Under the pieces are notes generated by a model. That model was not told the DNA's origin. It worked only from the letters and a program-made list of their open reading frames with translations, and ran no database searches. A DNA stretch of 64,000 bases, taken from a phage. The DNA lies in the sequence record PZ402305.1; one strand, given 5' to 3'. A program made the position numbers and the translations under genes. Positions 15,558 through 29,158 of this stretch are shown one piece after another (within the stretch, counting starts at the first letter, position 1; each line of letters starts with the position of its first letter).

Positions 15558-15604
15558 TATTTTAACTTTTTTCATTTTTAGAACAAAGGTGTCACTTTGT
15601 AGCA

Positions 15605-15660
15605 CAGAAATAAGGCTCCTACAACACTGTAGAGAGCCTATTATTTTGTCCTATACAAAC
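15605..15660 (+). terminator. Hairpin terminator after NADAR gene
   Basis: Nested inverted repeat AGGCTC-CTACA-ACAC-TGTAG-GAGCCT followed by T-rich tract; approximate. Confidence 0.45.
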
Positions 15661-15779
15661 ACTTATCTTTTTCAGTTTGCATCATTAGGATTCGATCTAG
15701 GTGGGTTCCTGAAGGTCTGCCAATAAGATTAAAGGTTATCTCAAATTACCCCTACTTGTTATCTCAAAAATTCCTCAAA

Positions 15780-15990
15780 TTATTTAAACTTTTTAAGAAT
15801 TTACAAAAGTGAAAGTTGAAAACCAAAATTTAAAGTTTAGGAAAATTATCTTAAAATGTTAGATACAAAACAAAACTCAAAAGTCAAGGAAAATTTTAAA
15901 AATTTTGCGCGCCCACAGTATTTAAAGTTTTTTTGCTTTTACAAAAATGAAAGTACAAAAGCAAAATTTAAAGTTTACAAAAATTTATGC
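15780..15990. repeat. A-rich direct repeats (iteron-like)
   Basis: Two ~45 bp near-copies ACAAAAGTGAAAGTTGAAAACCAAAATTTAAAGTTTAGGAAAATT and ACAAAAATGAAAGTACAAAAGCAAAATTTAAAGTTTACAAAAATT plus shorter relatives. Confidence 0.55.
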
Positions 15991-16025
15991 AGATGGGAAT
16001 GAGAAGAGTTCTCATATGGAAATGC

Positions 16026-16046
16026 AAATGATAATGATTCGCATTT
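16026..16046. promoter_or_regulatory. Fur-box-like palindrome 1
   Basis: AAATGATAATGATTCGCATTT resembles Fur consensus GATAATGATAATCATTATC. Confidence 0.4.
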
Positions 16047-16083
16047 AGGTTTATAAATGAGATTGATTCTTATTCGATAAGGT

Positions 16084-16104
16084 AAATGATAATCATTCTC
16101 ATTT
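16084..16104. promoter_or_regulatory. Fur-box-like palindrome 2
   Basis: AAATGATAATCATTCTCATTT; 12 contiguous core matches to Fur consensus. Confidence 0.45.
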
Positions 16105-16362
16105 AGAGAATGACGCGCAGGGGCGGTGTTTGTCTCGCGTTCCCGTGTCCCCTCGCCATGTAATAAGAATAACAGATCCAGCCAGGAAAGCAAGCGATTA
16201 TTTCATCTTTACATTTCTTTACAAATATATAGCGCCCAGCCTACCGGCGATCAACCTTCCAACCAGTGCCCCTGGTATGTTAGCCCCGCCTTTACGCCGT
16301 GGGGTGGCGCTTCCTCTTCTGTATGTAAAACAGTATAAGCCCGATCCCTGGGCTTGTCAAGA

Positions 16363-16629
16363 TTATTTTTTGTTTTCTTGCCAGGATAGGACACCTAACC
16401 AAAAATACATATCGCCCCGCGCCCCTGGCGGGATCTTGCTTTCCCCGCCGCCACTGCAAGCCCATAGATAACCATTTGCGAACGTATCAAAATGATCTAT
16501 CTCTTCCACCTTATGATCGCCCAGGTTGAGAACGGTTTCAACCTTTAAGCCCGTTGCGCTTGCTACCTGGTGCACCGTGCCGCCTTGCCAGCCCAATGAG
16601 TGCATAAGGTGTAATGTAGTAGTTGTCAT
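16363..16629 (-). CDS. hypothetical protein (88 aa) in GC-rich island
   Basis: Only minus-strand ORF inside the plus-strand region; local GC clearly above surrounding phage DNA. Confidence 0.4.
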   Translation of the reverse strand: MTTTTLHLMHSLGWQGGTVHQVASATGLKVETVLNLGDHKVEEIDHFDTFANGYLWACSGGGESKIPPGARGDMYFWLGVLSWQENKK

Positions 16630-16736
16630 GGTATCGCCCTTTCTTTGTTGTGCGCCCTGGTTGGCGCGGTAGAAAGATGATAGCCCTTTCCTTTATATAT
16701 AGCAAGCAAAAAGAAAATAAAAAGATTGAAAAAGTG

Positions 16737-16795
16737 GTTGACGTTCGCCAGGTGGCGGCATAATATTTACCACGTAGGGCGGCAATGGTGCCGCT
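16737..16795 (+). promoter_or_regulatory. Early-type promoter + 5' hairpin module
   Basis: TTGACG-N17-TAATAT then CACGTAGGGCGGCAATGGTGCCGCTC. Confidence 0.6.
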
Positions 16796-20278: not shown

Positions 20279-20335
20279 TTGACACGGGAAAGAAAAAGAG
20301 TAAACTATATTACGTAGGGCGGCAATGGTGCCGCT
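20279..20335 (+). promoter_or_regulatory. Early-type promoter + 5' hairpin module
   Basis: TTGACA-N16-TAAACT; ACGTAGGGCGGCAATGGTGCCGC. Confidence 0.55.
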
Positions 20336-27171: not shown

Positions 27172-27200
27172 AAGGGGCGCACCAAGCGCCCTTTCTTTTT
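27172..27200 (+). terminator. Rho-independent terminator ending the small-gene array
   Basis: GGGGCGCACCAAGCGCCCTTTCTTTTTG; same hairpin as at 22086. Confidence 0.6.
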
Positions 27201-28273
27201 GCCCGAATAATGTTGATAGATTCCGCCTATGGAAAACCGACACAGAACAAAACTGAATAAATAGCGGTATCGAGCTAATCAACCATTAAACGAATAACCA
27301 TACCTCCCAGGGTAACAGGCTGTTAGAGAGCCATTTAGAGCGGTTAAAATCGATCAACAACCAACAAAAAACCATCAAAAACACCCTTTTACCTCCTTTC
27401 TAGTGCAATGATAACCATTATCATCTATCCATGTTTATCTATGCAATATAAGTGCATAACTATAATGTTGATAATAGTTCGCAACAACTAACTAACCAAC
27501 AACCTAAAACAATAAGCAAACTAATCATAATCAAAGGAATAATAGCAAGATGATTGATAACGACAAACAATCAAACCATGATGAATACTAAGCAAGATAA
27601 CGATAACACGACAAAACAACCAACTAACGAACAATAACAAACGAAACCATTAAAATAATAACTATTAGCAAAATAGTGCCTGAATGAAATCATTACAAAA
27701 CGAATCATTCACAGGATCATCATTAGCACGCTATGCCGGACACATAGCGAGCTAATAATAAGCCAACTACACCCCAACAATCATAACCATCGGTGATGGT
27801 TATTTCTTGTTACTGCGTAGCTTGCAATAATTGCAAGCGTAATACGCTTACACTTATTGCGCTGGCTTATTATTAGCATTATATGTAATTACCAAGATCA
27901 TAACATTAGCGCAATAACAATAATCATTGTGGTAATTACAAGATGAAATAATCGCTATCGCTCAAAGATCATTAGCAAGATGAATAATTGCACGTAGCAA
28001 CATGAGCGAATAGCGACAGGTTGCATAGTGTGCACATAGATGTACACGTAGTGTATAAACATACAGGAAAATAAAGGCTAATCTTTTGGGGGCGAATACT
28101 ATCGCGTAGCGATATGTTGAGCACTAAGAGAAGAGATAAACCTTAATCATGGGGGCGTAAATATCCGCAGGATTGCCAACGGCGATCCGGTAGGATGTTG
28201 AGCATCTTCTCTTAAACGTAAATAAAATCAGAAAATTCTTGATTTATTTTAGTTTTTATGTTAATAAACGTTT

Positions 28274-28301
28274 AAATAATAATCATTCTCATATGAATAA
28301 T
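28274..28301. promoter_or_regulatory. Fur-box-like palindrome 3
   Basis: AATAATAATCATTCTCATATGAATAAT shares ATAATCATTCTCAT core with 16084 site. Confidence 0.4.
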
Positions 28302-28450
28302 AGTCTGCTTGTCATGAGCGGGATCAGTTGACAATGTTCCGTCATATGATGAAGTTGCCAAACCATTGATAAATAAGTGTTTGTGTGATTTATAATCAAG
28401 TGGCCCACCTTGTCGCTATGTTGGCATGAGCCTTGCATAAGTCATTGAAT

Positions 28451-28480
28451 ACGAATGATAATTATTCTCATTCGCATGAT
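28451..28480. promoter_or_regulatory. Fur-box-like palindrome 4
   Basis: ACGAATGATAATTATTCTCATTCGCATGAT, near-perfect inverted repeat. Confidence 0.4.
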
Positions 28481-28813
28481 ATTTGAGAATTGTCGCTGCG
28501 TGGACCTGACGGCCCGAAAATTCGCGTTAAGCACTTCTTACGTATGCGCCATGATTTTTGCCATATGATATTGATTCTATTAGATATTCTTGCCATGATT
28601 GCCATGAAACAGGGTGTCCCGAAATAATCTCTCCCCGTAGATATTTTGGGTTACTTTTTATACAAGAGTGGGGTGTCAAAAATAATCGGTATATATGGGA
28701 TAATTGATAGGAATCCCCTATGATAATTCGATTGTAATTCCCTGAGATTGATCGTATGATGTTGGTGATTGATGATTGCCATGAAAGATGGCTAACAATG
28801 AGAGGAGATTATC

Positions 28814-29158
28814 ATGCAAGAGAGTAAAAATGTTCCGTTGAGTAGTTTACGTCTAATGAAGTTTTACAAAGCTTGGCTTGCTGGTGAGGTAGAAGGTCAC
28901 ACAACGAGTGGTTTGTGCATATGTTTGATTAAGTATGTAGAGGGAACATATCCTGATGAACTGTTACCTCGTCTACAACAGGAGATGAAATCACAGTTTA
29001 TTGGTGCAGGACTGGATTACAATTTCCCGTTTAATGAAGGTGGTTATGAGGAATACACCTTCGAACATAAAAAACATATTTGCCATAAAAACAAACATCG
29101 TATACAATGGGTGCTAGATAGAATTCAAGATTACGAAGGAGAGAAAAATGACAAATAG
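28814..29158 (+). CDS. Paralog family member 1 (FYxxWL / GLC / PFN / WVKDR family)
   Basis: FYKAWLAG, TSGLCICL, GLDYNFPFNE, RIQWVLDRI; GAGGAG RBS. Confidence 0.65.
   Translation: MQESKNVPLSSLRLMKFYKAWLAGEVEGHTTSGLCICLIKYVEGTYPDELLPRLQQEMKSQFIGAGLDYNFPFNEGGYEEYTFEHKKHICHKNKHRIQWVLDRIQDYEGEKNDK

Follow-up and report, generated by a model that had tools for sequence, protein, structure and literature searches.

The concatemer junction of phages T7 and T3 comprises a short terminal repeat, a right-end region, pacB, at which terminase recognition takes place, and early promoters at the left end, and a hairpin intermediate has been proposed in the processing of T7 concatemers. Origins primed by a transcript are known from ColE1, with its RNA II, and from T4, with its R-loop origins oriF and oriG. 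Here we analyze a 1628-nt gap (27186-28813) in a 64-kb stretch of phage DNA (record PZ402305.1, 64,000 nt; hereafter the window) that holds no open reading frame (ORF) of 60 or more amino acids on either strand and is the longest such gap in the window, the second-longest measuring 417 nt. In each related GenBank record that we opened, the homologous stretch is unannotated save for a terminator at its left edge. We propose that a linear genome has its two physical termini side by side in the gap, seen in an assembly joined through a direct terminal repeat (DTR), and that its right-end side carries a cis-acting module read as a single strand, most likely as a leftward RNA immune to Rho; we put the probability of this explanation as a whole at about 0.6.

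As in T7 and T3, a short DTR separates the unique DNA of the right end from that of the left, the non-coding stretch to the left of the repeat is conserved and looks essential, promoters of host type occur a few hundred bp inside the left end, and there is palindromic DNA near the right end. Unlike T7 and T3, the phage is a 150-kb myovirus for which no phage RNA polymerase promoter is known, its repeat is 329 bp long and has the same direct motif at both borders, and, on the strand that points away from the end, a three-way junction supported by covariation is accompanied by a G-depleted tract, a combination for which we know of nothing comparable described in T7. The replication, duplication and cutting of genome ends in large myoviruses with short repeats are poorly understood outside T7, and the folded element (27709-27883) together with the tract offers a concrete, mutable target for a part played by RNA or single-stranded DNA (ssDNA) in end replication, packaging or insulation.

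Terminal repeat and candidate cut sites

The source phage is a Phapecoctavirus, a phAPEC8-like coliphage of the subfamily Stephanstirmvirinae, whose genomes measure about 150 kb, and the gap with its flanks matches 74 phage records at 90-99% identity, nearly all of them Phapecoctavirus. Records labelled as Campylobacter, Acinetobacter or Pseudomonas phages (MG065650 and its relatives, OP562383 and others) are 95-99% identical to these coliphages, and their host labels look doubtful.

The terminal repeat is recognized from the Schickermooser record, which carries the same 329 bp at both of its ends (Table 1); the paper on that phage, which was PacBio-sequenced, gives the terminal repeat as 328 bp. 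The window holds a single copy because the assembly joined, circularly, through the repeat. A distant-mode search found that numerous GenBank records start or stop within the gap, and more than ten further records begin or end on the 329-bp block, most of them exactly at its border, including those of Mt1B1_P17, BI-EHEC, WPEC1/2/4/6, KKP 3954 (which matches 320 of the 329 bases), Ro121lw and three SA_NWU phages. In several of these, for example Mt1B1_P17, BI-EHEC and WPEC1/2/4/6, the repeat stands at both record ends, so that identical sequence at the two ends, which defines the short-DTR (T7-type) class, is found in close relatives of this phage (95-99% identical). For BME3, a member of another genus, PhageTerm gave a repeat of 342 bp, and the ends of its record lie 342 nt apart on homologous border motifs despite a shifted annotation. 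That record (PP239276; our loci L052 and L053) contains Ns, the coordinates of its annotated left repeat (DTR-L) are shifted against the true repeat and the sequence beside DTR-L looks misjoined; the physical ends still fall on the motif pair. Direct terminal repeats end all Stephanstirmvirinae genomes according to a 2025 paper, and the terminal-repeat junction itself is already known for the subfamily. A first-pass annotation of this DNA, made from the sequence alone, had described the gap as a repeat region between the early array and the next operon and missed its chief fact, namely that it holds the physical genome ends and the 329-bp DTR.

The two borders share one motif, GTTR|AGCA, in which the bar marks the cut. 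At the left border, which in its longer form reads ..ATGTTG|AGCATCTTCTCTT, the records of Schickermooser and of more than ten other phages start, and the BME3 record ends at the homologous position; the right border, ..CGCGTTA|AGCACTTCTTAC, is the end of the Schickermooser record, and position 1 of the BME3 record lies one base short of the homologous GCGTTA. Ends determined independently thus coincide with GTTR|AGCA in two genera. The left motif is conserved in five lineages (Phapecoctavirus, the phiWec lineage, Justusliebigvirus, the Klebsiella phage phi1_175008 and the Citrobacter phage Tr1), and the motif pair is spaced 321-344 bp apart in four lineages and in phiWec179, one of the two phiWec phages examined; in the other, phiWec188, the right-border motif differs by one base, and the search pattern missed it. 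Only five matches to GTT[GA]AGCA[CT] occur on the plus strand of the window, and three of them lie inside the gap. We infer that the GTTR|AGCA borders are the terminase cut sites: terminase would cleave the concatemer at both motifs, with duplication of the repeat as in T7-type phages. The cut sites of the whole subfamily would then be pinned to one conserved motif pair, by which the many GenBank records of these therapeutic-candidate phages that were opened arbitrarily could be correctly oriented.

A further copy of the left motif, ATGTTGAGCA at 28114-28123, lies 81 nt upstream of the real border (28195-28204). After it comes TAAGAGAAGAG, which is complementary to the CTTCTCTTA found just within the DTR; some relatives have this extra copy, and phAPEC8 and ASO2A lack it.

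A minus-strand fold and the adjoining tract

To the left of the repeat, the minus strand folds into an element with a 15-bp closing helix (GCUAAUAAUAAGCCA / UGGCUUAUUAUUAGC) around a three-way junction, whose arms are a 16-bp imperfect hairpin and a long hairpin rod, and with a separate 8-bp hairpin on its 3' side. Homologues gathered from GenBank, IMG/VR and metagenomes came to 29 loci, 23 of them distinct, and the 19 full-length distinct ones were used; IMG/VR searches that used the flanking protein or conserved DNA words as query returned only 4-5 loci each, and roughly two in three pattern hits in the metagenomes were due to chance. Across the 19 homologues, 95.4% of 1006 cells pair on the minus strand, compared with 25-49% in slid controls. 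Compensatory change, the pattern sought in functional structured RNAs, affects 15 pairs, with 80 cells changed on both sides, a level that none of 500 shuffles reached. The variable end of the closing helix occurs in four fully compensated forms (AAGCC/GGCTT, AACGC/GCGTT, ACCGC/GCGGT and AACAC/GTGTT), and the hairpin rod in about nine compensated variants. Wobble pairs assign the strand: the minus strand has 78 G·U cells, spread over 12 pair positions, and the plus strand 2, and pairing drops to 87.9% when the element is read as plus strand. RNAalifold likewise gives -59.2 kcal/mol for the minus and -46.5 kcal/mol for the plus strand, with one extra helix that exists on the minus strand only. 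The minimum free energy (MFE) of the window's own minus strand is -93.4 kcal/mol (z -7.75), and 27709-27883 folded alone reproduces the covariation model exactly.

The element is an undescribed, covariation-supported and strand-specific fold, and it appears new. The Rfam/Infernal scan suggested in the first-pass annotation returned no hit at gathering threshold anywhere in the window with Rfam 15; with relaxed filters the best scores were 12-19 bits, compared with thresholds of 39-315. The non-coding RNA that the same annotation had listed among its candidates for the region gains support from this 175-nt element with its 15 covarying pairs, although the strand that folds is the minus and not the A+C-rich plus strand. 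Searched with the covariance model, the window shows no further copy, and the model detects neither the corresponding region of Av-05 nor that of the IMG/VR contig L007. In Av-05 (Vequintavirinae; locus L054, 2973-4890) a terminator comes first, then a CGGTATCG block, a G-poor tract that includes a Fur-like box, and a junction, and L007 (4621-5800) has this whole order and then TGTTGAG; in both the sequence is unrelated but the order is kept, and the junction is closed by a helix of 16-19 bp that is stabler on the minus strand. We also considered the hairpin at 27783-27803 as a plus-strand terminator and rejected it, since the A·C mismatches that relatives show there are G·U pairs on the other strand.

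The tract beside the element is unstructured on both strands (folding z of +0.08 for the minus and -0.18 for the plus), and its plus-strand RNA has an MFE of -11.7 kcal/mol over 231 nt. On the plus strand, G accounts for 3-6% of 200 nt in Justusliebigvirus and in the Klebsiella and Citrobacter phages and for 7-10% in the phiWec phages and Phapecoctavirus; in all five lineages C is 0.17-0.23 versus 0.03-0.10 for G, and A+T is 0.71-0.80. The tract is 92-99% identical within the genus and 92% identical to phiWec179, and it cannot be aligned between genera, where G depletion is its conserved property. On the plus strand it has the predicted make-up of a Rho-dependent terminator, with at least 80 nt of unstructured RNA in which C stands well above G. 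Read rightward, it would be a near-ideal Rho loading site right after the operon terminator; read leftward, it would give an RNA almost free of C, on which Rho could not load.

Set against phiWec179, the roughly 690 nt at 27200-27885 are 90-93% identical, the DTR 65% and the left-end region 67%, and the genes flanking the gap are unalignable. This stretch is the best conserved DNA in its neighborhood, constrained more than the repeat itself, which appears to be a new observation. Between genera, nucleotide similarity is confined to the terminator, the CGGTATCGAGCTAATC block, a Fur-box-like palindrome and the module at 27717-27885. A search for a host or plasmid source of 27200-27900 gave no match in 5,426 E. 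coli genomes and 72,556 plasmids.

The first-pass annotation had called the full 1.6 kb ORF-free and strongly A+C-rich, with direct repeats. That it is free of ORFs is borne out on both strands. The strand asymmetry is real for about 600 nt, from roughly 27200 to 27800, where A+C peaks at 0.72 in 250-nt windows at 27411-27730 (the maximum of the whole stretch, about 5 standard deviations above the mean, with G at 9-12%), but not for the remainder: from about 27800 to 28813, A+C is 0.43-0.54, composition is ordinary and strand asymmetry is absent. Two of the repeats it named do recur, ATTAGCA with 4 copies in 27664-27971 compared with 9 on the whole plus strand of the window (for ATTAGC[AG], 5 copies within these 307 nt compared with 13) and CACGTAG at 27991 and 28045, but the direct repeats quoted, at 27544 and 27591, amount to a single degenerate two-copy pair. 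A three-fold repeat of about 130 nt, which we also tried, had weak support in the gap.

Matches to the E. coli Fur box (the 19-bp consensus GATAATGATAATCATTATC) are in excess. The gap holds 8 predicted sites with at least 13 of 19 matches, compared with 1.4 expected, and none of 300 simulations reached this number; the best match is 15/19 in the gap and 16/19 at 16082. The palindrome in the G-depleted tract (Table 1) is conserved in all aligned lineages, including Av-05. Of the sites inside the DTR, the one at 28272-28290 is kept in phiWec179 and phiWec188 though most of the DTR has diverged there, and those at 28451-28475 are conserved in both phages and in Justusliebigvirus. Beyond the gap, similar sites lie at 16024-16048 and 16076-16106, the latter with 16/19. 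These sites resemble the E. coli Fur box (14-16 of 19 matches), and they lie in the right-end DNA, at two places in the DTR and at 16.0-16.1 kb, but they belong to a virulent phage, stand at genome ends and all share a ..ATTCTCAT half-site; because of this common half-site, their true ligand may be a phage protein.

Possible roles of the right-end module

In our explanation, the right-arm early operon, read from left to right, ends at the intrinsic terminator; non-coding DNA of the right end, about 1 kb long, comes next, then the DTR, and then about 280 nt of probable promoter and operator DNA of the first left-arm operon. The conserved right-end module would act as a single strand, most likely as a leftward transcript of about 0.25-0.65 kb. 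The three-way junction would form the 5' domain of this RNA and the C-poor body would escape Rho, and the same tract, read rightward as an ideal Rho loading site, would also block early transcription from entering the genome end. An RNA of this length with the junction at its 5' end is the form that we favor, at slightly less than even odds. It could serve to prime replication that runs leftward from the right end, to assist in end processing or in packaging, or to regulate. The primer role fits both the skew and the position of the module and is speculative; the more specific idea of an "end RNA" of rV5/phi92-like myoviruses, immune to Rho and either priming right-end replication via an R-loop or acting in end duplication or packaging, is a long shot.

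Among transcript-primed origins, ColE1 RNA II and T4 oriF/oriG resemble the module in that a strand-skewed stretch that unwinds easily, and whose RNA is G-rich relative to C, comes after a structured RNA domain, and the placement found here would let leftward synthesis copy almost the whole genome. The tract differs in being GU-rich rather than purine-rich, and a promoter, an RNase H site and a primer end are only hypothetical here; of the features of such origins, structure and skew are present and the upstream promoter sites are weak or non-conserved. With phi29 pRNA the element has in common a putative RNA of about 170 nt, a three-way junction and a place next to the genome end. A pRNA is characterized by about 120-174 nt, a three-way junction, intermolecular loop-loop pairing and a protein-primed phage; assessed by its junction, Rfam and genome type, the element falls outside this class, as it has no sequence or Rfam similarity to pRNA, phi29 is protein-primed whereas this genome has terminal repeats, and nothing ties the element to the portal. 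The T5 injection-stop region is, like the gap, a large non-coding block rich in repeats and hairpins and tied to early genes and genome ends, but the T5 region sits within a terminal repeat of 10 kb, where the DNA transferred first has its inner edge, whereas the block here spans the ends themselves with a 329-bp repeat, an arrangement that does not match an injection stop.

Several observations weigh against our explanation. The evidence on termini comes from the records of relatives and not from reads of this phage. Some of the aligned sequences were collected by means of a one-helix pattern (GTAGCTTGCAA....TGCAAGC), and the invariance of the helix concerned (GCTTGCAA/TTGCAAGC) is uninformative because the helix was in the search pattern; two sets of competing pairings, H4 versus Hc and H2 versus H1x, are mutually exclusive. 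The promoter scan found no convincing minus-strand sigma-70 promoter upstream of the element: -10-like sites 17-44 nt upstream are weak or non-conserved, and the best candidate, an extended -10-like TGTTATGAT (27897-27905, minus strand, 14-20 nt upstream), is weak and not conserved outside the core genus. A scan of the minus strand gave no consistent terminator and none common to genera, and our literature searches found no transcriptome of a Stephanstirmvirinae phage. Lastly, the asymmetry of G·U or G·T wobbles fits ssDNA as well as it fits RNA.

This last point leads to a reading in which the element acts as ssDNA, the minus strand being exposed during replication or repeat duplication and folding as a snap-back or priming structure, in the manner of a single-strand initiation signal or of the hairpin intermediate proposed for T7 concatemers. 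G·T wobbles are tolerated in DNA hairpins, so that the covariation and wobble data fit equally; the element always lies just inside the left DTR border (325 nt here, about 10 nt in L007), and for an RNA no good promoter or terminator was found. However, a junction of about 130 nt that has conserved loop sequences and is closed by a 15-bp helix is more typical of RNA, nothing points to the minus rather than the plus strand becoming single-stranded here, and the 350-nt G-depleted tract is left unexplained, which together make the ssDNA reading rather unlikely in our judgment. The tract takes first place in another reading, as mainly a Rho-dependent backup terminator or insulator that would stop escaped rightward transcripts before the genome end and the cut sites. 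It starts right after the terminator of a strongly promoted operon, its plus-strand RNA is essentially unstructured, and C exceeds G (17-23% versus 3-10%) in every lineage; as at rut sites, the end of an operon would be followed by unstructured RNA, over 200 nt long and much richer in C than in G. Rho loading needs composition only, yet the tract, unlike a rut site, is conserved at the sequence level within the genus (92-99% identity versus 65% for neighboring DNA) and adjoins a structure on the opposite strand, which insulation does not explain. As the main function of the tract we hold insulation to be a tentative alternative, and it is compatible with our best explanation, not exclusive of it.

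The right-end DNA could also be recognized as double-stranded DNA by the small terminase subunit, in analogy to pacB of T3 and T7, so as to direct a cut some 0.3-1 kb to the right, with the repeated ATTAGC and GATAAC motifs and the Fur-box-like palindromes binding protein. Nearness to the cut site, high sequence conservation and the clustering of ATTAGC[AG] and Fur-like sites noted above all suit this proposal, but binding sites for a protein should keep their sequence, whereas here helices change on both sides with pairing kept, mismatches are of the one-strand wobble type and other genera keep only composition in the tract. Such recognition may account for part of the conservation and cannot explain the compensatory changes; as a full account it is improbable. 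The replication origin named first among the candidates of the first-pass annotation fares worse still. A classical origin with initiator boxes and an unwinding element would suit a non-coding region with an AT-rich (A+T 0.71-0.80), strand-asymmetric tract, but neither DnaA nor IHF sites, Chi or GATC are enriched in the gap (there are one mismatched DnaA-like site and one IHF site), and repeat scans of the gap found no clear iterons or iteron family, leaving the AT-rich tract as the only feature of a DnaA/iteron origin. The GC-skew analysis that the annotation had recommended does show a local dip, which reflects the A+C tract only, and the stretch at 15558-16000 (GC 0.34, with iteron-like repeats) is more origin-like; we regard an origin of this kind in the gap as very unlikely. 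Least likely of all is the annotation's further reading of the plus strand as a long A+C-rich non-coding RNA or a protein sponge. Its striking composition, with many AAC and CAA triplets, speaks for it, yet a terminator lies directly upstream with no plus-strand promoter after it, the adjoining structure forms on the opposite strand, Rfam gave no match, and sequestration finds no support beyond the Fur-box-like sites.

Flanking features and other regions of the window

The features of the gap are collected in Table 1.

Table 1. Features of the gap and its edges, in window coordinates.
Feature	Position	Strand	Basis or remark
Intrinsic terminator of the right-arm early operon	27172-27194	+	AAGGGGCGCACCAAGCGCCCTTT then T-run (terminator scan)
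Conserved block ..GAATAAATAGCGGTATCGAGCTAATCAA	27252-27282		Alignments; common to several genera
G-depleted, A+C-rich, AT-rich tract	27340-27708	+	Adjoins the folded element; carries the repeats at 27544 and 27591
Fur-box-like palindrome TGCAATGATAACCATTATC	27404-27428		15/19; small hairpin TATGCAATATAAGTGCATA then at 27440-27458
Structured element, 175 nt	27709-27883	-	Covariance model R1, 195.8 bits; single copy in the window
Hairpin TGTAATTACCAAGATCAT / ATCATTGTGGTAATTACA	27884-27940		Inverted repeat
Variable spacer	27946-28200		Alignment shows indels among relatives
DTR left border, ATGTTG|AGCATCTTCTCTTAA	28195-28215	+	Putative cut between 28200 and 28201
DTR, 329 bp	28201-28529		Exact copy at both ends of Schickermooser record MK373788
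Fur-box-like site TTAAATAATAATCATTCTC	28272-28290		14/19; inside the DTR
Two overlapping Fur-box-like sites ACGAATGATAATTATTCTCATTCGC	28451-28475		14-15/19; inside the DTR
DTR right border, AAAATTCGCGTTA|AGCACTTCTTAC	28517-28541	+	Putative cut between 28529 and 28530
Left-end control region of the next operon	28530-28813	+	Promoter-like sites 28599-28628 and 28732-28760 (promoter scan)

The terminator at the left edge is annotated in phAPEC8, ASO2A, Schickermooser and Paula and conserved in Justusliebigvirus, Klebsiella phi1_175008 and Av-05. The block that follows it forms a weak hairpin with a U-run on the minus strand, according to a scan for minus-strand hairpins; it is present in Av-05, and a CGGTATCG remnant is left in L007. 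The hairpin to the right of the folded element is not conserved in the phiWec phages or other genera. Within the spacer, the CACGTAG copies form hairpins (27991 and 28045), and the tandem repeat finder reports an 11-nt tandem repeat at 28024-28055. The spacer also has two units, each GGGGGCG, a hairpin and ATGTTGAGCA, the first of which holds the extra cut-site motif; relatives have one or two units. We considered the CACGTAG units as promoters and rejected this: elsewhere the motif starts early transcripts after TTGACA-N17-TAATAT, and both copies in the gap lack such promoters.

To the right of the repeat, a ribosome-binding site, GAGAGGAG, precedes the ATG at 28814, and TTGCCATGA occurs three times (28590, 28599 and 28776); a 20-nt sequence, ATGATTGCCATGAAA.., is repeated directly at a distance of 177 nt (28595 and 28772). 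The TTGCCATGA boxes and the 20-nt repeat (28590-28791) are possible operator sites of the left-end promoter region, which has conserved sub-blocks in phiWec179 and phiWec188.

Small genes were sought in the gap as well: no ORF of 20 or more amino acids is conserved beyond what nucleotide identity leads one to expect, and a scan for tRNA and tmRNA found nothing. A hydrophobic ORF of 32 amino acids, MFLMVFCWLLIDFNRSKWLSNSLLPWEVWLFV (27286-27384, minus strand), stands behind a perfect Shine-Dalgarno ribosome-binding site, AAGGAGGT; its complement is a polypyrimidine run that is conserved on the plus strand. It is absent in Justusliebigvirus, and we rejected it as a gene.

Elsewhere in the window, 15558-16770 is a second large non-coding stretch, with a GC content of 0.34. 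Iteron-like repeats, TTTACAAAA and AATTTAAAGTTTA, lie at about 15790-15990, Fur-like sites follow at 16024-16106, and the stretch lies just upstream of the first strong early promoter. Its part at 15.6-16.1 kb looks more like a classical origin or regulatory region than the gap does. The early-promoter cassette, on the plus strand at 16771, 18293, 18935, 24927 and 26439, consists of TTGACA-N17-TAATAT/CATAAT followed by CACGTAGGGCGGCAATGGTGCCGC, a 5' stem-loop; GTAGGGCGG is also found at 20314, 22645, 23514 and 25202. What is annotated in phAPEC8 as "PHIRE promoters" is the 5' stem-loop of this cassette and not the promoter.

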